A stretch of DNA of 63,998 nt, filler included, from Bonamia ostreae (GCA_040357525.1; 4 parts of 4 records of this genome joined end to end with filler, not necessarily neighbours in it), one strand, 5' to 3'; positions 21,257 through 58,539 are shown, counted from the first letter of the whole stretch. Made by a program: numbers and translations. Notes: a model not told the origin generated them from the letters alone.

Positions 21257-21356
21257 NNNNNNNNNNNNNNNNNNNNNNNNNNNNNNNNNNNNNNNNNNNN
21301 TTAATTAATTAANNNNNNNNNNNNNNNNNNNNNNNNNNNNNNNNNNNNNNNNNNNN
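21257..21356. other. Artificial contig linker (N-TTAATTAATTAA-N)
   Basis: Six-frame stop linker at 21301-21312 flanked by Ns. Confidence 0.95.
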
Positions 21357-30582: not shown

Positions 30583-33500
30583 ATGCCGAGCCACTCAAAC
30601 TTCCAGATTTATTTGACTGAAAGTCTATTCTTGCTCAAAAAAACATGTAGTCGCCGAGACAAAAACGTCACAGAATCGATAGATTCAGTTCTGACAAAAT
30701 TAAAGGTTGCAAAATTTTGAAAATCAGAATAATGTTCATCCAATGGAATCGATTAATTTGAATATTCTGGAACCATTCAAATTAGCCTGCGAGTCCAGAA
30801 GCACTAAGTTAATGGGCGTCAGTCTTGATTGCCTTCAAAAATTAATATCGACGTCTCTTCAAAATTATCCTCTTGAAGATCCCACTTTCACGCACGCGGT
30901 TCAAAAATTTGTGTAAAAATATTCTAAAACTGTAAAATGGGCAAATTATCCAATTTAAATTCTTCTCGTTTACAAATTTTTTTCTAAAACAGATTTTAGC
31001 GCAATATTAAAATCTTGTGATTAAACGTAAAAATTGGAAAATAATGATAAAATTTTAAAATTTTTCAAAAATTAAGAAAAACAATGAAAAGTGCATAAAT
31101 CAAGTTTTAAAAATAATTTGCGGATGCGGATTGAATCCCTCCGACGAAATTGTTTTAAAAGTTGTGCAAAATATTTTGACTGCAATTTCGTCTTCTTACG
31201 ATATTCACATCGAACACCTTTTTTACGCTGTTCGCACTTGCTTTCATATTTATCTCTCTTCTAACAGCAAATGTCTTTTACAAAAATTTTAACATAACTT
31301 AAAATTTTCAAAAAAATTTACGAGTAAAAATATAAAAAAATCAAATTTAAGTAAATAAAACTTGCGCAAGAGCAACATTGGCACAAATTGTTCAAGTAAC
31401 TTTTGATCGCTCGAAAAACTTTATGAAATTATTTGAACAACTTCTTAAAACGCAAAAAAATAATAAAGAATTGTCGAATAAAAAATTCTCGATGATTAAT
31501 TTTGAAGGTTTTGGCTAAATTTGTATTTTAAAATTAGCAAATTTTTCCAAACTTTTATTAAAAAAATTAATTTCGTTAAATTTTTTTATAAAATTTCACT
31601 AAAAATTTTAAGAGATCAAAATGAATTCGTTTAGCGAAGATTTTATTACAGAACGGAAAAATAAAAGCGATCGAATTTGCAGAGAAATTGTTATCGATAT
31701 GATCAGATCAAAAGTTTTGGGACAGTTAAGCGGAAAATATGGATTTTGTACTGTTTGTAATCGCTCTGCTGACCATTTTTGTTTACAAGTTAAAATTTAG
31801 CCTTTTTGAATAAAAAATAATTTTTCATTTTGGTTATTTTTTATTTTTTTTATATTTTATAAAATAGACAAAAGATTCTGTTTGTTCGATGAAATGCAAA
31901 ATTAAAAATTTGTCTTCGATAATTTTATACAAAGAAACGAATCCGAATCAAAAACATTTTTTGTCGATTGTTTTGTTAACGATTTTATATCAAAACAATT
32001 GTTTGCTAATTTTGCGATCTCTTTGTTCTTTGGCCAATTCAAATCTTGATGGTATTGATTTCACGTCTTATAATTCCAAAAACGTTAAATATTTGAACAA
32101 AATTTTTTAATTGAAATTTGGAAATTTTTATTAAATTTTGAGACTAAATTGAAAAACTTAGGAAAAACCACTGAAATTGCAAAGTAAAGAATTGTCATTA
32201 GATTTGATATTGCACATTTTAAAAGGAAACAGTGAAAATATAAAAAAATCAAAATTGTTTTTGGATTTGATTAAATCCAAATTAATTGGATTGCTGATAC
32301 AAAACGTCTTTGAGAAAAATAGTAATATTAACGGGTTTTTCAATTCACTTAATTTTATTGTCAAAAATAAAAGTAAATTTTAAAAAAAAATTAGGCAAAA
32401 AATATTTTCAAAATAAAAGTAAATTTTGGTAAAAAATATTGTCAAAAACAAAAAATGAAATAAAAATCTATAAAAATTTTGCAAAAAGAACAACAATCGC
32501 AATATTTCTAGAACTTCTCAAAAACTTCAAAACGCATTTAAAAGTCGAAATTGGAGTTTTTCTGCAATGCATTTTAATCAAAATAATCGAAAGCAAAAAT
32601 TCCAATTATCGACAAAAATTGATTTGCGCCGTTGTTTTTCTAAAAGTCTGTTCGAGCGAACAGACTTTGGTCGACATCTTTCTAAATTATGATTGCAACA
32701 CAAACGGTTTCAAGATTTATCAAACTATCGTCAGTTTTATCGAAAAAATGACTCAAATGAAGTTTACTTTTTTTTGTTTAAAATTTGGCTGTTTTGTCAA
32801 AATTTATTTTTTCGTTTCTGCGCAATTTTTAAAATAACAATTTTGTTATAAAGACATATTTTTAAATTTTTTAAGATTAACAGTGAAAGATTGGATAAAC
32901 GAGAGTCAAGAAACGCAATTAAAAATGATCGCTTTGGGATGTTTCAAAAAACTGTTTCAGTCGTTATTGAAATGGGTTGAAAATGCAATAAAAATTAGAA
33001 AAGAAAAATTTTCCAAAAATTTGGGATTCAACAAAAAATTTAATCAAAAAATGGAAATTGAAAATGTTTTGGAAAAAGCGATCGTAAAATTTAACGAATC
33101 TCCAAAAATGGTTTTTCGAATATAAAAATTTATCAAAAAATAAATGTTTTCTAAAAAGTTGGCCAAAATAAAATTTGCAAAATAAATTTCAAAATTTAGC
33201 CAAAATGTTAAAAAAATAAAGGGAATAAATATGCTACAATCAGTTGGTATAATAGACATTAAATCTCCGACAAATATTGCTGAATTTTTATATAAAACAC
33301 CAAATTTGAGTAAAGAAGCAATTGGAAAATATCTCGGAAAGTCCGAAAATGAGGATATATTGTCAGCTTATGTTTTTCTGTTTGAGTTTGATGACTTGAA
33401 AATCGACATTGCTTTGAAAAAATTTTTGAATAATTTTCTTTTGGTCGGTTTTTATCTTATAAAATCTAAAATTTGTTAATGCAAAAATGNNNNNNNNNNN

Positions 33501-39935: not shown

Positions 39936-40035
39936 NNNNNNNNNNNNNNNNNNNNNNNNNNNNNNNNNNNNNNNNNNNNTTAATTAATTAANNNNNNNNN
40001 NNNNNNNNNNNNNNNNNNNNNNNNNNNNNNNNNNN
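39936..40035. other. Artificial contig linker
   Basis: TTAATTAATTAA at 39980-39991 within Ns. Confidence 0.95.
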
Positions 40036-40099: not shown

Positions 40100-41176
40100 T
40101 CAAAATTTTGCAATAAAACGGCAACAATAAAATATAAAAACTTGGACTAAAATGGGCACGAAGATCCTGTATCGATTGCTCCTCAAAGGAGTGTCCAAAA
40201 TCCAATTAAACCTGTCGCCCTCCACAAACTCAAAATCATAATCGCCGCATAACCGCTTCAGACAACTTTTCGCCGCCCTTTTCTGGATCGTCTGCTTCCG
40301 CAGACATTTTGGTTCCCACAACGACACGAAAAGCTTTTTCTTAAAATTTTTGCTGTTTCTCGCTATTCTCTCCATTTCTGAAACTGCTTTTTTCGCTCCT
40401 TCTTCTTCACAAAAAACGACAAAACCGATTTTTCTATTTTCGCTTTTGAAAACATTGCCATCATCTTTCTTTTGTTCGCCATTTTCGTTGATTTCGTCTG
40501 GACTTTCATTGTTGCGATCTTTTTTATTATTAAATTCAAAACTTCTTTTATTGCTGAATTCTCCGTTTTCAATGTGCACCGACTTTATCTGGCCAAATTT
40601 ACTAAAAATTCTGATCAAATCTTTGTCTTCGTATTTTTGCGGCAAGTTTCGAATGTAAATCGTGTGTCTAAAATGGCACAAATTGTTTTTGTAAGTCTCA
40701 AATTTTATTAAGGACAAATTCTCAGTATTGTCAATTTTTTCTTGGTCAATTTTGATTTGGTCAAATTTGGTCAAATTTTGGTCAATTTCAATGTCGAATG
40801 GACTGATGTTAAAATAAAATGGCGGCGAGTTGTTGACAAAATTAATTACTTTTTTCGAGTCTTTGCTGTTTTTATATTTTATTAAAAAAATATGTTCCTT
40901 TTCTACCAAATTTTGATTATCGTTTTTAAACAAAATTTCATTTTTGGCAAAATTTTGATTTTGAGATTCATCAATAGCATTTAAGAATGGATGATTGTTG
41001 TGACAAACGTAAAAATCTTCAATAGATCCAAATTGTCCAAAAAACTGTAAAATTTGTTCAAAATTTAGTGAGTTCGGAATATTTGAGATTTTGACTGTGT
41101 TTTCGTTAAAATTTTCAAATTGATTTGTTTTTGCTGATGGAATTTTTTGGTTTTCACAAAATAATGTTTTTCCCAT
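40100..41176 (-). CDS. RNA-binding protein with two RRMs
   Basis: TVKISNIP..FGQFGSI; TIYIRNLP..FSKFGQIKSV..KIGFVVF. Confidence 0.75.
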   Translation of the reverse strand: MGKTLFCENQKIPSAKTNQFENFNENTVKISNIPNSLNFEQILQFFGQFGSIEDFYVCHNNHPFLNAIDESQNQNFAKNEILFKNDNQNLVEKEHIFLIKYKNSKDSKKVINFVNNSPPFYFNISPFDIEIDQNLTKFDQIKIDQEKIDNTENLSLIKFETYKNNLCHFRHTIYIRNLPQKYEDKDLIRIFSKFGQIKSVHIENGEFSNKRSFEFNNKKDRNNESPDEINENGEQKKDDGNVFKSENRKIGFVVFCEEEGAKKAVSEMERIARNSKNFKKKLFVSLWEPKCLRKQTIQKRAAKSCLKRLCGDYDFEFVEGDRFNWILDTPLRSNRYRIFVPILVQVFIFYCCRFIAKF

Positions 41177-41279
41177 TTTTTTGTTACCGGAGTTTTTAAA
41201 TTTTTAAATCTGTTGCTAATTTTTTATTCTAAAGAAATTTTTTTTTATTTTTATTAATTTGCATTTTCTAGTTGAAGTT

Positions 41280-41650
41280 TTTGTTAATCCAAAACGACAA
41301 AAATTTATTTTTTGCTTATCCAAAACGACAATAAATTATTANNNNNNNNNNNNNNNNNNNNNNNNNNNNNNNNNNNNNNNNNNNNNNNNNNNNNNNNNNN
41401 NNNNNNNNNNNNNNNNNNNNNNNNNNNNNNNNNNNNNNNNNTCCAAATTTATAAAAACGACAAAAACAATTATTTTTTGCTAATCCAAAACGACAAAAAA
41501 ATTATTATCCAAATTTATAAAAACGACAAAAACAATTATTTTTTGCTAATCCAAAACGACAATAAATTATTATCCAAATTTAAAAAAACGACAAAAAAAT
41601 TATTTTTTGCTAATCCAAAACGACAAAAAATTTGTTTTTGCTTATCAAAA
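41280..41650. repeat. Tandem repeat of ATCCAAAACGACAA-type units containing an assembly gap
   Basis: TTTTGCTAATCCAAAACGACAA...TTATCCAAATTT units recur on both sides of the N run. Confidence 0.85.
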
Positions 41651-41760
41651 TTTGAATGTCTAAAAAATTATCAAAATTTGTCGGAAGAAAGTATCGCTGC
41701 ACTTCGAAACCGAGTCCGACATACGCTCCTCCCTGGCACTATCTCGAACCAGAGAGACAA
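41651..41760. ncRNA. Conserved structured element, copy 1
   Basis: Shares TTTGAATGTCT, TTTGTCGG and TCGAnACCGAGTCCGACATrCGCT with 48587-48680. TGTCGG/CCGACA stem. Confidence 0.45.
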
Positions 41761-41793
41761 CAAATTAAAAAAAATGATAAAAAAACATTTCAA

Positions 41794-42711
41794 TTAATGT
41801 AATTCTTTTTAATTAAACAAATTGAACCTTCCGCAATCAGTTTCCTTATTTCGCCGATAGATTTCGAAGGATTTAACCCCTTTGGACAAGCGGTGACACA
41901 GTTCATTATGCTGTGGCATCTTCCGAGTTTCCACTCGTCGTCTAAATCTTTTAAGCGTTCTGCTCTTGCGCCATCACGGGAATCGATTATCCATCTGTAA
42001 GCTTGATTGAGGACTGCTGGCCCGAGATATTTGTCGGGATTCCACCAATAGCTGGGGCAGGAAGTGCTGCAACACGCACATAAAATGCATTCGTACAAAC
42101 CGTCGAGCAGTTTGCGTTGACCTATCGACTGCAATTGTTCTTTTTCTTTCGATTTTGGATTGTTTTGTTTGGAAGGTTTTTTGATCAAATAAGGTTTAAT
42201 GGATTTGTACTGTTCGTAAAAGTTGGTGAGATCGACGACGAGATCTTTAATAACTGGTAAATGCTATTTTTAAAAGTTTGGTGATTTTACTGGAAGAGGA
42301 AGAACGGTTGTTGTCTTTGACGAATCTGGAATCGGTGTCAAACAAGCCAACCCCTTTTGGTAAATTTTGGAGTGAAAACGTTTGAGCCGTTAATGTTCAT
42401 CGCGCATGAACCACATATACCTTCTCTACAAGATCTGCGAAATGAAAGGGACTAAATATTATTTTCGAAAAAAGAACGGAATCGGTCTCTGATTTTATTT
42501 TAATAAGGGCGTCGAGAACCATTGGACCGCATTGTTTTTTGTCTATTTTATATTCAATTTTTTTGGGTTTCGATGAATTGTTTGGACTCCATCGATAAAT
42601 ATTGAAGGAAACTGACTTTTTACTGTTAACAGAATCAGCTGCGACTGGCCCAGAAAAGAACCTTTTCTGGGCTTTTAAAAAAATTAATGGTTTTCTTGTT
42701 TTAGAAAGCAT
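41794..42711 (-). CDS. SDHB: Succinate dehydrogenase iron-sulfur subunit
   Basis: [54 protein letters not shown]. Introns of 26, 26 and 27 nt, and probably 23 nt. Confidence 0.97.
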
Positions 42712-43371
42712 TCGGACAAAATTTTGGGCTTTACGAAAATATTGCTATAATTATTCTAACTATTTTATGCGAAACTGCTAAAGTATAATTATTCCAACTG
42801 AGAGAAAAATGGATTTGTTATAAGTTTTTTGTATAAAAAGGAAAATTGTTGTTAAAGATTAGTTTCTGCATGATTTTTAGTTTTTTAGTTCCTGAAAATT
42901 GTTCATTAGATTTATTTGACTATTGTAGCTGAACCTCATTGAACTCCATTATTGTTGTAATTCAAATTTCAGCCCATTATTAATAAATATTTCGATCACA
43001 GCCTTTCCCAAAATTGGGAACTCGTTAAAAAAATATGTTACTGTTATGAAAAATTATAAAATAATGTCATTCATTAAAACTTGTTGATTCAATTATATTT
43101 TTTCAAATCATAACTATTTTTTTAACTTTTTTCTTGATTTTATTACATTTCAATCGCGAAATATGAAATCATTACATAAATTAAATTTTCTTCAGATTAC
43201 AGCAAAACTGAAATTTCATATTTTACATTACTAAAAATGTTAAGACGACATATCGTCGAAAACGATCGAGATATCCACAAAGATTTGATTAAATCTTTAT
43301 CGACTAAATATAAGCTTTTTCATGTATAAATATATTCAAAAAATTATATTTGAAAAGCATAATCTAAAAAA

Positions 43372-43444
43372 CATCCACAGAGGGATTTGAACCCCCAATC
43401 TCCCGATTCGTAGTCGGACGCCTTAACCATTAGGCCATGCGGAT
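43372..43444 (-). tRNA. tRNA-Arg (anticodon ACG)
   Basis: 73-nt cloverleaf with acceptor stem ATCCGCA/TGTGGAT, anticodon loop CT-ACG-AA and GGTTCAAATCC, followed by a T-run. Confidence 0.93.
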
Positions 43445-43594
43445 TGATATAAATCAATAAATATTTATATAAATAAATTAGAAAACTATAAAGTTCAGAT
43501 TAATTTTAAGAAAAAACACATGTTGAAAAGCGAAAATTAAAAAAAATAATTGATTTTTGATATCAGTAATTTCGAAAAAAGTCCGGATACAATA

Positions 43595-44438
43595 ATGGCT
43601 ACAAAATTCACAAATTCCGTATTTTTACTCAAAAAGATTAAACACAAATCGAACAAAAACAAAGAAAAATTTTTGTACCAAGTCAAGAAAAACCTTTTCG
43701 TAAATAACTTCGAAAGAAAAATTTTAGTTTTAGATTTGGACAACACATTGGTCCACACTTCTTTGACCGAAAACATTTCTCGGAAACACGATTTTAGCAT
43801 TTACATGGAAACGCTCGATGCGCCGTTCTATGTTTACAAGAGACCAGGTCTAGAATATTTTTTGGAAAATCTCAGCAACAAATATGCCATCTACCTTTTC
43901 ACTGCTTCTTTGAAACAGGTTGAAAATTCTTTATCACCAAATCTTATTAGTCATCGAATTCTTTTATATTAATTTTACACTGCAAAAGTATTGTTTTTAA
44001 TTTTGAGACTCAAAAATGACCAATGCAATTTTTTAGTTTATTTTTATCAAAATTGGCTAAAAAAGTACGCGGATAAAGTAATAGCGAATTTGAAGAACAA
44101 AAACAGGTTCTCGAAGAGATTTTATCGAGAACATTGCTCGGCTTACGACGGGTTTTTGTGGAAGGTTTTTTTCGATTAAACAGAAGGATCTGTCGAGAAT
44201 AGGATGTGGCACGGCTAATTCGATGATAATAGATGACAAAGAACAAATCGGAAACGGCATATTGATAAAGGAATGGACATTCGATCTTAAAAACGATCAA
44301 AGTCTTTATAAGCTCCTTGTCGCACTTAATATTTACGCGGAGAGCGATAATTTGTACAATTTGTTCAAAGGCAAAATGGTCGCCGAAAAAGAAGCGCTTA
44401 AGAAAATAACTGTTTTGGGTGAAGGAATTGTTGTTTAA
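43595..44438 (+). CDS. FCP1/SCP-like (NIF) CTD phosphatase
   Basis: LVLDLDNTLVH, YKRPGL, LFTAS, YADKV, FYREHC, KDLS, IIDD; two introns. Confidence 0.9.
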
Positions 44439-44506
44439 ATTCTAAAAATTTTTTATTGAGTTGTCATAGTAAATATTCTAAATATTATTTAGTCAAAGTT
44501 AGGTTA

Positions 44507-45360
44507 ATGGCCCAGATTAAAGTCGAAAAAAACGAGAATCTAACATTATCCACTCCAGAGTCTCTTAAGAAGAAAAACGCGCGCGATGAGAAATTGGCTC
44601 TCGCAAATAGCAATCGCGTTAAAAAATCAAACCTGAAAGACAAAAGGAATAAAAAGCTCATCTACAAAAAAGCTGAAAAATATGCCAACGAATATATTGA
44701 AGGAGAACGATCTCTTGAAGAACTCCGCAAGAATGCCGAAAAAGAAGGAAAGTTTTTTGTCGAACCCGAAGCAAATTTATTGTTTGTTATCCGCATCAGA
44801 GGGTTTTCAATTTTAAAATTTGAAATTTTAAAAATGACGACAACAAATTTTCATCAAAATTTAAAAAATTGACAACAAAAATTTTTCATCAAAATTATTT
44901 AAAAAGAATAAACAGGATATCCCCGAAAACAAGAAAAATTTTGGATCTTCTGAGACTTAGACAAATCCACAATGGCGTTTTTGTGAAAGTGAACAAACCG
45001 ACTTTAAACATGATAAAACTCGTCGAGCCTTACATCGCTTACGGATATCCTTCTTTAAAAACAGTGCGCGAACTTGTCTACAAAAGAGGACATGGCAAAA
45101 TAAACAAACAGCGAATTGCGATAACAGACAACAAAATGATCCAAGCGACTCTGGGCAAAGACATAATATGCGTCGAAGACATTGTGCACGAGATTTTTAC
45201 GACCGGAAAAAATTTTAAGAAAGCGAACAATTTCTTGTGGCCTTTTAAGATGAGCAGTCCCAAAGGCGGTTACAACAAAAAGGGGACCCATTTTGTGGAA
45301 AAAGGAGATTATGGAAACCGCGGAAAAGCTATCAATGATTTGATCAAACGCATGAATTAA
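44507..45360 (+). CDS. RPL7: 60S ribosomal protein L7 (uL30)
   Basis: FVIRIRGIN (intron 44803-44906), [32 protein letters not shown]. Confidence 0.97.
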
Positions 45361-45829
45361 AATATTGCGGATTTTTATTTTTTGTTAATTTGTTTTGTGA
45401 CTTTGTAAAATTTTCTGCTTTGTTTTGTGATGAACAATCAGATAACAAACGCTTTGTAATTTGATGTTGTCTATTCGTTTTTCTGCATTCGATTGCGATT
45501 TTCGATTCATTTAAACAGCTTTCTTTATTTTCGGATTTTTACAGTTTGCTGAAATATGGGCTAGATCATCGTTATAATCAACAAGATCATTTTTAATCAA
45601 CCGAGACAAATTTTGCCATATTATTAAAATGGGTTCGTTCTAGATAAGTTTAAACCACATTTTTAATTAATAATTTAATCAAATCTCTCCTCTTCACATT
45701 TTTGAATTTTGATGATAGATTTTAATATTCTAATAATTGCAGATTTGATTTTTCTTGATTTTTGATTTCCGATTTTTAAACTAAAACGATAAATTAACGA
45801 TTAATAAATTAAAATGGACAAATTTAAAA

Positions 45830-46793
45830 TATTTAATCGTTATATTGGTTTGGCTTTACAATAAGGATTAAACTAAGAGGTTTCCAGAAATGCCATAATA
45901 ACGAAATTAGAAGACAGGAATATAAAATCTGTTCGAAAATCCATGGCCATCTATTCAAAAAATCAAAACTTTCATTTGTTAAGTTTTTGTTGTATTCATA
46001 CTTTTGAAATTTTAATTTTTAAAAAATATTTGTTTTTGTAAAAATAAAAACTGTTAGAAAGAAAACAACAAAGATGTAGTAAACAAGAACGTTTGAATGA
46101 AAGATATAAACAAAAACACGAAATTTTTTAAATCGTTTTTTTAGTTCCAAACTACTCATTTTTGACAAAATTTTTTCTGTCATAAAAATAAAAAGAACTC
46201 CAATAATCAATTCCGTAGATCCCAACACTCCATAGTAAATATAAGCGGAATATCTTTTTTTTATTTTTACAAAATCTTATCCAAATTATTTCTCAATAAA
46301 TTTAATGTTCAGAAATTTTACAAAATTTAAAATTTTATAAAAAGTACAATTTTTCCCTGCTATCCCCATAAACAATTGAAGTGAATAACAGAACGATTGC
46401 AGCTATAAAAAGTCCGAAAAGAAAAAAATATAAAATTTTTGTATTGATTTTGACGGCTTTGTTAACAGTCTGAATCATCACAACAAACAACGCCATATGT
46501 GACGCCATAAAAAATATGTTGCTCGTCGCATTGAAAATTATGACCCGATTATTTGGAATCGACACAATCAAATCGTATACGAAAAACCAAGAAGCAAAAG
46601 TTATCATTGAAGATATCAAACCACAAATTTGTACAATTGTTTGGACTTTAAATGTTTGGAAAAAATACACGTTGCTGTTTTTACAGCGAACGATGTTTTG
46701 TAACAAAAACATGTAGCCAATAGTAAAAAATAAAGTTAGAAATATCGATGTTATCATTATGTACATTGGATCTATTTGTTCCAAATTTGACAT
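45830..46793 (-). CDS. Seven-transmembrane protein, possibly GPR107/TMEM87 (LUSTR)-like
   Basis: About seven hydrophobic segments over three exons; the last reads RWPWIFEQILYSCLLISLLWHFWKP. Confidence 0.5.
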
Positions 46794-47124
46794 TTTTGAT
46801 TATTTTGTTTTTTAAATATTTTCTTTTTGTTGCTTGCATGTTTCAAAAAGAGGATTTTAATTTAAATGTTAAATTTGTTAAGAAAAATTATTCGGTTAAA
46901 TTTAGAATATGTTTAATATGGGATAATTTTCGAGTTAAAATTTTTTTAATTTCAAAATTAAAAACAACCAAAATTTAATTTTTATTCGAGAAAATAAAAG
47001 GTCATTGGCGATTCGCAATACAATTGTAAATTGGAAAATATAAAATTTCAGTAACAAAGCAATATTATGAGATAACCATTTTCAATACAACATAACAAAA
47101 AAGCTGTAACAAAAACTCCGCAAA

Positions 47125-48364
47125 ATGGATGTACATAACAAAAACGACGCGATTGCAGATAAAGACAATTCGAATAAATTAAGTTTTACAGAACGTTTCG
47201 ACAAAGCGAATAAAGAAAACCGCCTTCAAATCGTCAAAGAACATTTTCTGAACAGAATAAAGAAGATGGTCAACGACACCAGTTTATCCGTTTGCAACAA
47301 ATTTAACAACAAAGGAAAAAATCGCGATGATATTTTCTCGTTTGGATGTAAAGATGCTAAAAACAATTGAAGAAACAAGAAGATTTGAGCAATGTGTGTA
47401 CCAAATTAAAAAGGAAATCAAAGAAGCAGAAAAACGCCATAAAACGACAAAGAATCTGTTGAACAAATACAAACACCAAAAAACAAAACCGATAAATTTT
47501 CGTGAAAACAAATTTGCCAAAAAACAAGAACGTGCTTCAGAAAATTTGAGCAAATCAATGTCACAATTAAAAATTTCGAACAAAGACGTTCCGACTTTCA
47601 AAAACACATTGAAAAGCAATTTGTCGAAAAGTTTTCAAATTTCAAAAACCGAAATCACAAACCAGAAGATCAAACCTCATTCTAAAACTTCTTTTGAAGA
47701 ACCCGAAAACAAATACTTAAAGATAACTGATATCGGCAGAGAAGCCAGCGCGAAAACGATCGCTTTGTATTTTGATCGCTCTTCAGAACAAAACAAGATA
47801 GTTTGGGTCGCTGTATTCACTTCCCGGAACGGCATTTTAAGCACTGTCATTAACTTTGCCGACACCGAGTTTGCACAAACGGCATTTTTGTACTCGAAAA
47901 CGCATCTGTTGATAGGAAGAACGATGAGAGCCAAATTTTTGTCTAATTTTGAGATTTCGTTGTTGTTCCAAAACAAAGTTTTAAGTGTGTATTTGAACAG
48001 CAAATTTTCCGAACTGGATTGGAGAAAAGACTTTGAGAACTGTAGGGCTATCAATATTGACAACAAGCAAAATTTGACTTTTCAAAACTTTAACAAACAG
48101 AGTTTGAATGCTTGTGAAGACGCTGATAGAAGAGAGTTTGCAGCGAAAAATGAAAATTCAAATTGGTTTTCCGGGGGATTTTCGCATAGCAAAGACAATG
48201 GAAGAAACTTTTGTTGTCAAGAAAGCGGTCTATACAGACCAAAGACGTTTGTCGATTCAAATATTCAGTTGGCACCGGAAATTCAATGGACGGCTGAGAT
48301 TGTGAACAGGAAGATAAATGAGGGGATTTGCAAGATTGTGAGTGAGCAATTAACAGTTTTGTAG
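47125..48364 (+). CDS. Hypothetical coiled-coil + RRM-like protein
   Basis: Two ORFs join through a GT-AG intron. RRM-like segment YLKITDIG...TVINFADTEFAQTAF...GRTMRAKF. Confidence 0.55.
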
Positions 48365-48586
48365 ATTGAAATATTTATTTTTTATGCAACTAACGAAAAA
48401 GGAGAATGTGAAGAGACGGTTGATGAGCGAATACAGTTTTGATCAGTTGTACGAATACAGTCAGAAGAATTTGATTGGAAATCTGATTATCAAAACTGTG
48501 GAAGACATAATAACAAGTAAAGCGATGTAATCTTCGTTGTTGTGTACTTTGCAGTAAAAATTTTCACAATAAAAACGCCTTATGCC

Positions 48587-48700
48587 TTTGAATGTCTGTG
48601 ATACCGGGTGCAATCCGAAGGGTAGGTGGTTTTGTCGGTAGGCAAAATATTAAACATCGACACCGAGTCCGACATGCGCTGGGGTCCCCACACGCAGAAT
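48587..48700. ncRNA. Conserved structured element, copy 2
   Basis: Same three conserved blocks as 41651-41727, with extra hairpins in the variable parts. Confidence 0.45.
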
Positions 48701-48815
48701 AAAAAATTCCTAAGAGAAGCGGCAAAACATAAAATTTGTTCTAAAGGATAATTAAAATTTTCATTTCCAAAAATCAAAAATCCTCAAAATATCGAAAAGC
48801 CTTTCAAACATAAAA

Positions 48816-51081
48816 ATGAATTTTAATTTTTACAAGGAAAAAAACGACATTTTTACCAAAGGTAAAATTCTTCAATTCGTCCAGAAGAGAAAATATTTTT
48901 CGGATTCTAAAGAATTTGTAGATACTGTTTTTCACAAATGAATATCAAATTATCAAAATTTAATACAGCAATAACATTTAAACACAATTAACAGAAAATA
49001 AAATTATCACAATCAAAAACCAAATTGGTCGAAAAATAATTTCAAAACAAGTTCATGACAGCGCCATCAAAAACAATAATAAAAGAATTTGAAGAACTTG
49101 ACAAAAATAACAAATTGGATTGTAAAAATTTTGTAAGTTCGAATTTTGTGACATCAAAATTAGAAAAAATCCCATTTATCCCAGAATATTCTGAAAAACT
49201 GCCTCAAAATTACAAAAAACGTTTTAAAAATGTTGATTTTGTAAAATTTGCCGAAGAAATTCATTCAAAATGGCCAAGTTTGATTAAGAAACTGCCAAAA
49301 TATGTTCTAACTTATCCTGATCGAACTAGTTATATCCCTTCTAAACATAATTTTTTGGTCATTCCGGGTGGTCGCTTTAAAGAATATTATTGTTTTTAAT
49401 TTTCATTCAAATGTTTCATTGTAACGATATTAATTCAGTTACAATTCTTATACAAAAATTTAGATTGGGATACATATTGGATATTGTTGGGATTTTATAG
49501 ATCTGGAATGTACCAATCAGCAAAAAAAGTTATAGAAAACTTATTATATTTTGTCAAAAAGTTCGGATTCGTTCCAAACGGTAACAGAACATATTATCTA
49601 AATAGGTCTGATATTAAAGTACAACAAATAATAAAATTGATAGCGGTAAAATAATAACATCTTAAAAGGTCTCAACCACCATTTTTGACATTCATGGTCG
49701 ATAAATATTACAGAAAAACAAACGACGTTCGATTTCTTTCAGAGGCCTTGCCACTTTTAAAAAAAGAATATTCGTTTTGGATGAAGAAGGGAAATCGCGC
49801 GATAAAAATCGAGCACAATGGAAAGCAATATTTTTTGAATAGATATTTTGCCGATGAAGACAGAATTCGTCCTGAAAGTTGGCGTATTGTTTTTAATAAC
49901 AAGTAATTTATTTTGTACATATTATTTTCGGTAACAGTGCATAAACACGGAAACAATAAAAAGGACAAGTTAATATCATCGAAAATGCAAAACTTTGAAG
50001 AGAAAAAACGTTTTTATAGAAATATAACTGCGGCGACAGAGTCGGGATGGGACTTTTCATCTCGTTGGACTGGGATAAATTTTGATTTGAGTGGTATCAA
50101 AACGACCGATATCCTTCCGGCTGATCTCAATGCTTATCTGGTCGGAGTCGAAAGAATTTTGTTTTCTTATTGCAAATTATTGGGCGATCGGCAAATTTTA
50201 AAATTTAAAAAGGTTTTGCAAATTTGAATAAAAAATTTTCAAATTGTGTTTTTGCCAACTGATTTTTTTAATTGAAGAGATACAAGCAACGATTAAAAGC
50301 AATGTATGAAGTGTTTTTCGATAACGAGAGAAATCAATGGTTGGACTATGATTTCAAGAAAAGAGAGAAAAGGTATCACTGTCCCTCTGTTTCCAATTTT
50401 ATTCCTCTCTGGACAAGAGCTTATGAAACAGAAGGCAAACGCGGTATTGATGTTGACAAAGTTTATTGGCGTCAATAAAAACAATGAACATGAAAAGTCA
50501 TGTTTACAATAAAAAGATAGCAGAAGAATTGCAGAAAAGCCATTTGGGGAATGCTGAAGTGCCGTTGGCGGTAACAAGTTGTGTTTCAATGCAACAATGG
50601 GATTATCCTAATGCCTGGAGTCCTGTCACTGTTTATTATACCTTTTTGAGGCTATTATTATTGTGTAGGCGCAACATTGATCGGCATTTTTAATGACAAC
50701 AAAAACTGCATTTAAATAATTTTAACAAAAATAATTTCAATGTCATAAACTCGAAAATATAATTTAAAAATTAACTTGTGACAATGAAGCACATGATAGT
50801 TGAAGGTTTGGAAAAAGCTGGTACTCGAAAAACGAGAAGAATGGCTAGAGAAATCGCTGTAAAATGGATTAAAGCCAATTTTTATTTGTTTAAGAAAACC
50901 GGGTTTTGACAAAAAACAAAAAAGAAAAATATTCGAAAGAATTAACGCGTTAGCAGATTTAGAACATGACGAAATGGGGGAATATGCTGTACAAGTTTCA
51001 AAAATTTATTCACAGTTTGGATTTGGATGGACCAATGGGGTTTTGTTGGAATTGATGTATAGATACGCCATTTATCTTTAA
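48816..51081 (+). CDS. Trehalase (GH37), multi-exon, no obvious signal peptide
   Basis: DSKEFVD, PGGRFKEYYYWD, FVPNGNRTYYLNRSQPP, RPES, ESGWDFSSRW, QQWDYPNAW, GEYAVQFGFGWTNG. Confidence 0.93.
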
Positions 51082-58439: not shown

Positions 58440-58539
58440 NNNNNNNNNNNNNNNNNNNNNNNNNNNNNNNNNNNNNNNNNNNNTTAATTAATTAANNNNN
58501 NNNNNNNNNNNNNNNNNNNNNNNNNNNNNNNNNNNNNNN
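58440..58539. other. Artificial contig linker
   Basis: TTAATTAATTAA at 58484-58495 within Ns. Confidence 0.95.

Follow-up and report, generated by a model that had tools for sequence, protein, structure and literature searches.

What are the two short GC-rich pieces that lie between genes of the oyster parasite Bonamia ostreae, on the same contig and in the same orientation, and that share a few perfect or nearly perfect words set among otherwise unrelated sequence? The stretch analyzed here (63,998 nucleotides (nt), filler included, from assembly GCA_040357525.1; four parts of records joined end to end) is called the window throughout. A preliminary description of positions 41651..48700 had seen here two dispersed copies of a structured non-coding element, and had placed both copies correctly. 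The pair is a real, non-random, two-copy conserved non-coding module. As to what it does, the two copies are tentatively read, with somewhat less than even confidence, as paralogs of a small, lineage-specific non-coding RNA gene on the minus strand.

Three ordered blocks in two GC islands

The longest of the shared blocks is a 24-mer, TCGANACCGAGTCCGACATRCGCT, which at up to three mismatches occurs at exactly two sites in the 64-kb window, 41704-41727 and 48657-48680, both on the plus strand, where none is expected; no match of this quality appeared in any of 100 shuffles. Alignment with blastn lengthens it to a 27-mer that is identical at 24 of 27 positions (Table 1). Co-linear with the 24-mer in both copies are an 11-mer, TTTGAATGTCT on the plus strand (block 1), found exactly at 41651 and 48587, and an 8-mer, TTTGTCGG on the plus strand (block 2), which precedes the 24-mer by 19 nt in copy 1 and by 18 nt in copy 2. 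With one mismatch allowed, the 11-mer is found seven times against 5.3 expected, which is chance level, so that the weight of block 1 rests on its position. There is also a small extra match, CTTAT on the plus strand, lying 5 nt (copy 1) or 3 nt (copy 2) before the 11-mer.

How often would such an arrangement arise by accident? With the 24-mer as anchor, the 100 nt upstream of it were shuffled 5000 times. A shared word of 11 nt or longer anywhere in that interval arose in 18 of the 5000 shuffles, and one of 8 nt or longer at the same distance from the 24-mer (±2) in 40; the two jointly were never met in the shuffled flanks; among 5000 segment pairs drawn at random from the window, 13 had both. 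When the two elements are aligned globally (154 columns, 83 matches, 54% identity), the three longest match runs are 14, 11 and 8, a combination reached in none of 100000 permutations. Chance similarity between the copies is ruled out by the shuffles of the 24-mer, the joint-block shuffles and the match-run permutations together. Since the matches come in clumps, constraint appears to have acted on the blocks, rather than the pair being a duplicate in uniform decay. The preliminary description had reported three ordered blocks parted by unrelated spacers, and blastn, shuffles and alignment bear this out: the spacers cannot be aligned. Their lengths behave differently, the one between the 27-mer and block 2 being nearly constant (15-16 nt) and the next one variable (15 or 33 nt).

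The two copies also stand out in composition. The window as a whole has a GC content of about 30% and contains N gaps, eukaryotic genes and tiny introns. Both elements reach 0.49 GC against 0.09-0.22 in their flanks, and the parts that are not conserved are GC-rich too. That both copies are intergenic as well as GC-rich had been claimed before and agrees with their Pfam-supported neighbors. In AT-rich protist genomes, GC islands are typical of RNA genes.

Table 1. Positions of the features of the two copies, counted from the first letter of the window
Feature	Copy	Position	Strand	Remarks
GC island	1	41677..41766		0.49 GC
GC island	2	48576..48726		0.49 GC
5' hairpin	1	41728..41757	-	-16.1 kcal/mol, z -3.47, 2/200 shuffles as good; plus strand -8.0
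5' hairpin	2	48675..48696	-	-10.8 kcal/mol, z -1.71; plus strand -8.5; overlaps first 6 nt of 27-mer
27-mer	1	41701..41727	-	ATG 41722-41720; ends in GT 41702-41701
27-mer	2	48654..48680	-	ATG 48675-48673; ends in GT 48655-48654
Block 2	1	41677..41684	-	CCGACAAA on minus; pairs with TGTCGG of 27-mer (helix P1); branch-site-like
Block 2	2	48631..48638	-	CCGACAAA on minus; 18 nt to 24-mer (19 in copy 1)
Block 1	1	41651..41661	-	AGACATTCAAA on minus; T6 run before; ATAAG after, 41645-41641
Block 1	2	48587..48597	-	AGACATTCAAA on minus; then ATAAG 48583-48579, T5 48575-48571
Candidate intron	1	41660..41702	-	43 nt, GT...AG, 33% GC; putative
Candidate intron	2	48596..48655	-	60 nt, GTTTAA...CACAG, 47% GC, holds weak AUUGCAC hairpin; putative

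Small RNA genes or mobile elements?

Read on the minus strand, each unit begins with a 5' hairpin that differs between the copies, followed by the 27-nt block, the near-constant spacer and CCGACAAA, whose CCGACA can pair with the TGTCGG of the 27-mer; then come the variable spacer, AGACATTCAAA, another 3-5 nt and ATAAG. In the proposed gene the 27-mer would be the working part, probably held in a stem-loop by the CCGACA pairing, while the last box may be a 3'-end or processing signal outside the folded core. Transcription, its strand, the ends of the RNA and any role in splicing are predicted from sequence. The most specific mechanism on offer comes from the layout itself: a 27-mer that stops at GU and pairs downstream would resemble the donor of a spliced leader, or mini-exon.

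Folding agrees with part of this scheme. The helix formed by TGTCGG and CCGACA (P1), proposed in the preliminary description, is present in the minimum-energy folds of both copies; the small TCG-N4-CGA hairpin that had been drawn inside it is absent from both. Different hairpins had been noticed beside the block in each copy, and these hold up as well: they occupy the same place next to the 27-mer with sequences unrelated between the copies, and both fold more stably on the minus strand than on the plus strand (Table 1), as the preliminary description had supposed from the G-U pairs. The hairpin of copy 1 is the single clearly non-random fold. A loop in copy 2 with the U1A-binding word AUUGCAC had also been pointed out. 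The word is there, on the minus strand at 48608-48614, but its eight occurrences in the window compare with 7.4 expected, and the hairpin (4 bp, -2.8 kcal/mol) is matched by 161 of 200 shuffles, so that both are at chance level.

Taken together, the GC islands, the clumped conservation, a hairpin that keeps its place, the preference for minus-strand folding and the little room at copy 2 suggest a pair of small minus-strand RNA genes. The last point follows from the setting of copy 2, which is wedged between a convergent plus-strand gene and the possible start of a trehalase gene, leaving space for nothing larger than a small gene. Lineage-specific families of non-coding RNA in protists offer a general likeness, in that they too combine a GC island, a short motif, a terminal stem and variable inner parts with no match to a universal family. 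Such families, on the other hand, comprise many members that are expressed and that share a promoter box upstream; the element here has two copies, and no upstream motif is common to them.

Several observations weigh against this reading. Block 1 of copy 1 falls outside the GC island. There are only two copies, and the sole helix they share, P1, is invariant; because it is identical in both, the pair can yield no covariation. The folds of the whole elements (z on the minus strand -1.85 for copy 1 and +1.45 for copy 2; on the plus strand -2.15 and +0.51) and of the P1 domain (z -1.47 and -0.58) are no better than those of shuffles, and copy 2 has no structure in its 3' part (z +1.47). Both units contain T4-T6 runs on the minus strand, and a simple RNA polymerase III gene therefore does not fit. 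Finally, no Rfam family was found even on 301-nt pieces searched at E values up to 10. The structured-RNA interpretation is thus plausible but unproven. Of the preliminary verdict, which had been for an RNA family rather than a recent duplication, the non-chance, block-wise conservation and the unrelated flanking genes speak for one part; the notion of a structured family fares less well, given the invariant helix and the fold z-scores.

The searches for known families were consistently negative. Rfam 15 at gathering level returned nothing in the window except a tRNA-Arg(ACG) gene at 43372-43444 on the minus strand (65 bits), leaving both elements unmatched. At E values up to 10, neither a 7.7-kb region nor the 301-nt pieces round each copy gave anything meaningful on either copy, the best noise match being SNORA18, upstream of the block, whose 17.6 bits (E 0.97) fall short of the gathering score of 70. 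The preliminary description had found no match to small nuclear RNA (snRNA), small nucleolar RNA, signal recognition particle RNA or ribozymes; the Rfam search, negative for all of these, also covered RNase P/MRP, 5S, 5.8S and spliced-leader RNAs. A likeness seen by eye to U2, U6, 5S and 5.8S sequences was dropped, as Rfam gave no score for any model at E values up to 10. Within two regions, ARAGORN found no tRNA genes at ps80 or ps70, and its single match at ps60 lay in the AT-rich tandem repeat, outside the element; a tRNA-like element is ruled out by these relaxed searches.

Could the pair instead be a mobile element? A modular element of the kind of a short interspersed nuclear element, or some other short mobile element, would explain the blocks as parts needed for mobilization and kept among master copies, the unrelated spacers as the mark of different subfamilies and the GC-richness as a sign of recent insertion. 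At a density of two per 64 kb, the element might be present in many copies; besides, a 66-nt tandem array adjoins copy 1, and the interval 48576-48697 is bracketed by the direct repeat AATAAAAA. However, this 8-nt repeat, itself AT-rich, has a match at copy 2 alone, the ARAGORN result gives no tRNA-likeness at ps80 or ps70, and no terminal inverted repeats were found at the elements, which speaks against transposon ends. No third copy, even a diverged one, turned up in the window, either by self-comparison, in which the pair is the only GC-rich dispersed repeat, or with a covariance model for the core, derived from the pair, whose next best match scored 12.8 bits (E 0.11). Perfect blocks beside spacers that cannot be aligned would also be odd for insertions of one family. 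A mobile origin is accordingly considered unlikely. Outside the window, metagenomes scanned with a 19-nt core yielded 15 loci and no relative: all are in contigs of 51-73% GC and none of the 15 has TGTCGG in the 60 nt upstream, so they are taken as chance matches, their number being about as roughly estimated beforehand. A 13-nt core, in four spellings, was in no paper of the literature searched.

Possible splicing signals on the minus strand

The small-RNA reading has to be set beside another feature of the blocks, absent from the preliminary description. On the minus strand, the 27-mer consists of five bases, an ATG and five further codons (together Met-Ser-Asp-Ser-Val-Ser in all), one variable base and GT; of the two substitutions within the 24-mer, one is at the base before the ATG and the other, GTT/GTG, changes a third codon position synonymously. 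The first bases of block 1 on this strand are AG, preceded by T6 in copy 1 and by TATCAC in copy 2. Block 2, CCGACAAA, lies 20 nt (copy 1) or 38 nt (copy 2) before that AG and presumably resembles a branch region, going by a loose consensus. Since ATG, GT, branch-like box and AG coincide with the blocks, the "unrelated spacers" could be intron, and the blocks could also fit an exon/intron/exon arrangement or a donor RNA of the spliced-leader type.

The first of these arrangements is a minus-strand leader spliced in cis. Here the 27-mer would close exon 1, CCGACAAA would serve as the branch region of an intron 43 or 60 nt long, and exon 2 would begin at ACATTCAAA; such a leader would form the 5' end either of an mRNA or of a non-coding RNA that is spliced. 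The arrangement accounts for much of what is conserved: conservation stops 1 nt before the GT in both copies, the AG of block 1 and the distances of block 2 from it are in suitable places, and the substitutions in the 24-mer are confined to position -1 of the ATG and a synonymous third position. The donor of copy 2, GTTTAA, fits the GTT-type donors of this genome, there is a 46-nt intron nearby (48356-48401), and a gene for an RRM protein lies downstream of copy 1 on the same strand. The donor of copy 1, GTGCAG, is atypical, however, and the candidates are 43-60 nt long with 33-47% GC, against 26-27 nt and AT-rich for the introns of the neighboring SDHB-type gene. Splicing would give open reading frames (ORFs) of 47 and 11 residues with only the first 9-10 in common (unspliced, 20 and 31 residues), and the frame of block 2 is not the same in both copies. 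Downstream of copy 2 there is neither a minus-strand gene nor room for one, and the copy runs into the convergent plus-strand gene. About 20 hypotheses were tried by eye, so that the coincidence of signals is only moderately significant, and a cis-spliced leader is held to be quite improbable. A protein-coding exon as such was rejected: the ORFs have 11-47 residues, their common part being only Met-Ser-Asp-Ser-Val-Ser and 3-4 more, with block 2 in different frames.

The SDHB-type gene (41790-42744, minus strand) has three introns, of 26, 26 and 27 nt, all AT-rich, starting GTTC, GTTTTC and GTAAAA and ending TTTAG, AAAAG and AATAG. The 46-nt intron, on the plus strand, has GTTTTG as its donor and, 7 nt ahead of its AG, an ACTAAC box; it joins the ORF 47261-48355 to the last exon. 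A rough automatic set of 58 unique candidates from 98 clusters, contaminated by false positives and of qualitative use only, has T at donor position +3 in 23 of the 58.

The second arrangement is more specific: the two loci might be genes for spliced-leader RNAs, trans-splicing an AUG-bearing block of about 25 nt onto mRNAs. The rhizarian Paulinella micropora, as described in the available text of PMC6053224, has two subtypes of spliced-leader RNA gene with a common leader and different intron parts, in which the splice junction lies within stem-loop I; 62 candidate genes are counted there, including 43 SL-I and 14 SL-II copies, and the features listed are a leader typically ending in G, UUU in the leader and an Sm-type site in the intron part. 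As in SL-I and SL-II, a short conserved 5' block stands directly before GT in Bonamia (the 27-mer, conserved at 24 of 27 positions and ending in GT in both copies) and the copies differ downstream of it. As in the Paulinella RNAs, too, the junction would be in a stem between leader and intron, in small genes without a long ORF (PMC6053224, available text): P1 encloses the GT in the minimum-energy folds of both copies, in folds with the shuffle-level energies given above for the P1 domain.

Other features differ, and most of them count against a spliced-leader role. The 64-kb window has two dispersed copies against the 62 candidate genes of Paulinella, and the block would end in A or U instead of the G given in the same available text (PMC6053224). 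Only copy 1 has the UUU triplet. The places of Sm-like U-runs followed by G do not match between the copies, which thus share no Sm-type site. In both copies a hairpin stands upstream of the block, unlike in the Paulinella RNA. In the literature searched, trans-splicing in the Ascetosporea is unreported; a transcriptome paper, in its available part, merely leaves polycistronic transcripts possible (PMC9329632). The probability put on spliced-leader genes is accordingly low, within rather loose bounds. If true, they would represent the first trans-splicing reported in the Ascetosporea in the literature searched, and would make a second rhizarian lineage after Paulinella, in a haplosporidian with tiny introns that start with GTT.

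A further thought links the locus to splicing in another way. Copy 2 could be a minimal, divergent U1 snRNA gene, with its RNA starting near CCG|ACAAAAC and including the AUUGCAC loop; the 24-mer would then be an upstream promoter element of the snRNA type, 18-19 nt before the start region, and copy 1 a degenerate or different gene with the same promoter. The near-constant spacing between the 24-mer and block 2 would suit such a promoter, and copy 2 has, after its block 2, an ACAAAAC that could pair with GUUUUGU donors. In Entamoeba, the U1 sequence AACAAAC, matched to GUUUGUU donors, escaped standard searches (bioRxiv 10.1101/2022.06.08.495308, available text), and in the related mikrocytids U1 was not found by Rfam (PMC10245619, available text). 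The candidate is like the Entamoeba U1 in its A-rich complement to the 5' splice site, in an organism with GUUU-type donors, and in being missed by standard Rfam searches, but the Entamoeba U1 keeps four stem-loops, sites for 70K and U1A and an Sm site (bioRxiv 10.1101/2022.06.08.495308, available text), of which none is supported here. The Rfam U1 model is silent on the 301-nt pieces at E up to 10, the AUUGCAC word and hairpin are at chance, and an Sm site with a 3' hairpin is absent. Donors in the window vary after GTT (GTTC, GTTTTC, GTAAAA), and copy 1 keeps all the blocks without any U1-like feature. A U1 gene at this locus is very improbable.

Gene boundaries and the meaning of the pair

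Copy 1 is flanked by two minus-strand genes. One is the SDHB-type gene, for an iron-sulfur protein with Fer4 domains, whose stop codon (41792-41790) is 32 nt before the element; the other is the RRM protein gene (40100-41203), separated from copy 1 by the 66-nt tandem array and a 100-N gap. Copy 2 is flanked by two plus-strand genes, one without a Pfam family, whose last exon, after the 46-nt intron, ends in TAA at 48528-48530, and one for a trehalase with a possible ATG at 48816. As both elements have the same orientation on the scaffold, they are oppositely oriented relative to their neighbor genes. The two left-hand flanking ORFs (367 residues) are unrelated (best E 0.49); they are not paralogs, and a segmental duplication is thereby ruled out.

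Why, then, do both copies start 32-46 nt past the stop codon of a neighboring gene? They may be DNA-level gene-boundary elements, such as a terminator, an insulator or an upstream regulatory module, that act in either orientation. This would account for their place, after the SDHB-type gene or the plus-strand gene and upstream of the next gene, and for their opposite orientation relative to those genes; furthermore, P1 is all Watson-Crick, and therefore forms on either strand. Only two boundaries in the window carry the element, however, and any intergenic element in a compact genome sits near a gene end. GC-rich, hairpin-forming variable parts with a preference for the minus strand would be needless in a protein-binding DNA module. 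A boundary function is therefore rated as rather improbable.

The immediate surroundings show some further features. The tandem array that adjoins copy 1 is AT-rich and occupies 41442-41632 (and also 41278-41340, across the N gap 41342-41441), with 2.9 copies and 96% matches. Each 66-nt unit holds CGACAAA, the word of block 2 on the opposite strand, which is found 41 times in the window against 16.9 expected, a count reached in none of 100 shuffles. An AATAAA at 48568-48573 lies immediately before copy 2. Elsewhere in the window, near-perfect palindromes, GC-richer than the AT-rich DNA around them, occur at 1823-1846 (24 nt) and 32643-32668 (26 nt) and are possibly hairpin signals. The segment 18735-20617 has 56-59% GC, in a window of roughly 30%, and open frames on either strand; it is far GC-richer than the neighboring genes. 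Paired 44-N runs, 12 bases apart, are found at 21257-21356, 39936-40035 and 58440-58539; unlike the 100-N gaps of the scaffold, they seem to be masked repeats and not gaps.

What the pair means for the parasite depends on which of these explanations holds. As a repeat or a boundary box it would be an ordinary finding. The three SDHB introns seen here point to an unusual splicing system in the parasite. If the two loci are expressed as small RNAs, they would give an oyster parasite of commercial importance, so far barely characterized, an RNA family specific to its lineage, for which the 27-mer is a ready probe.

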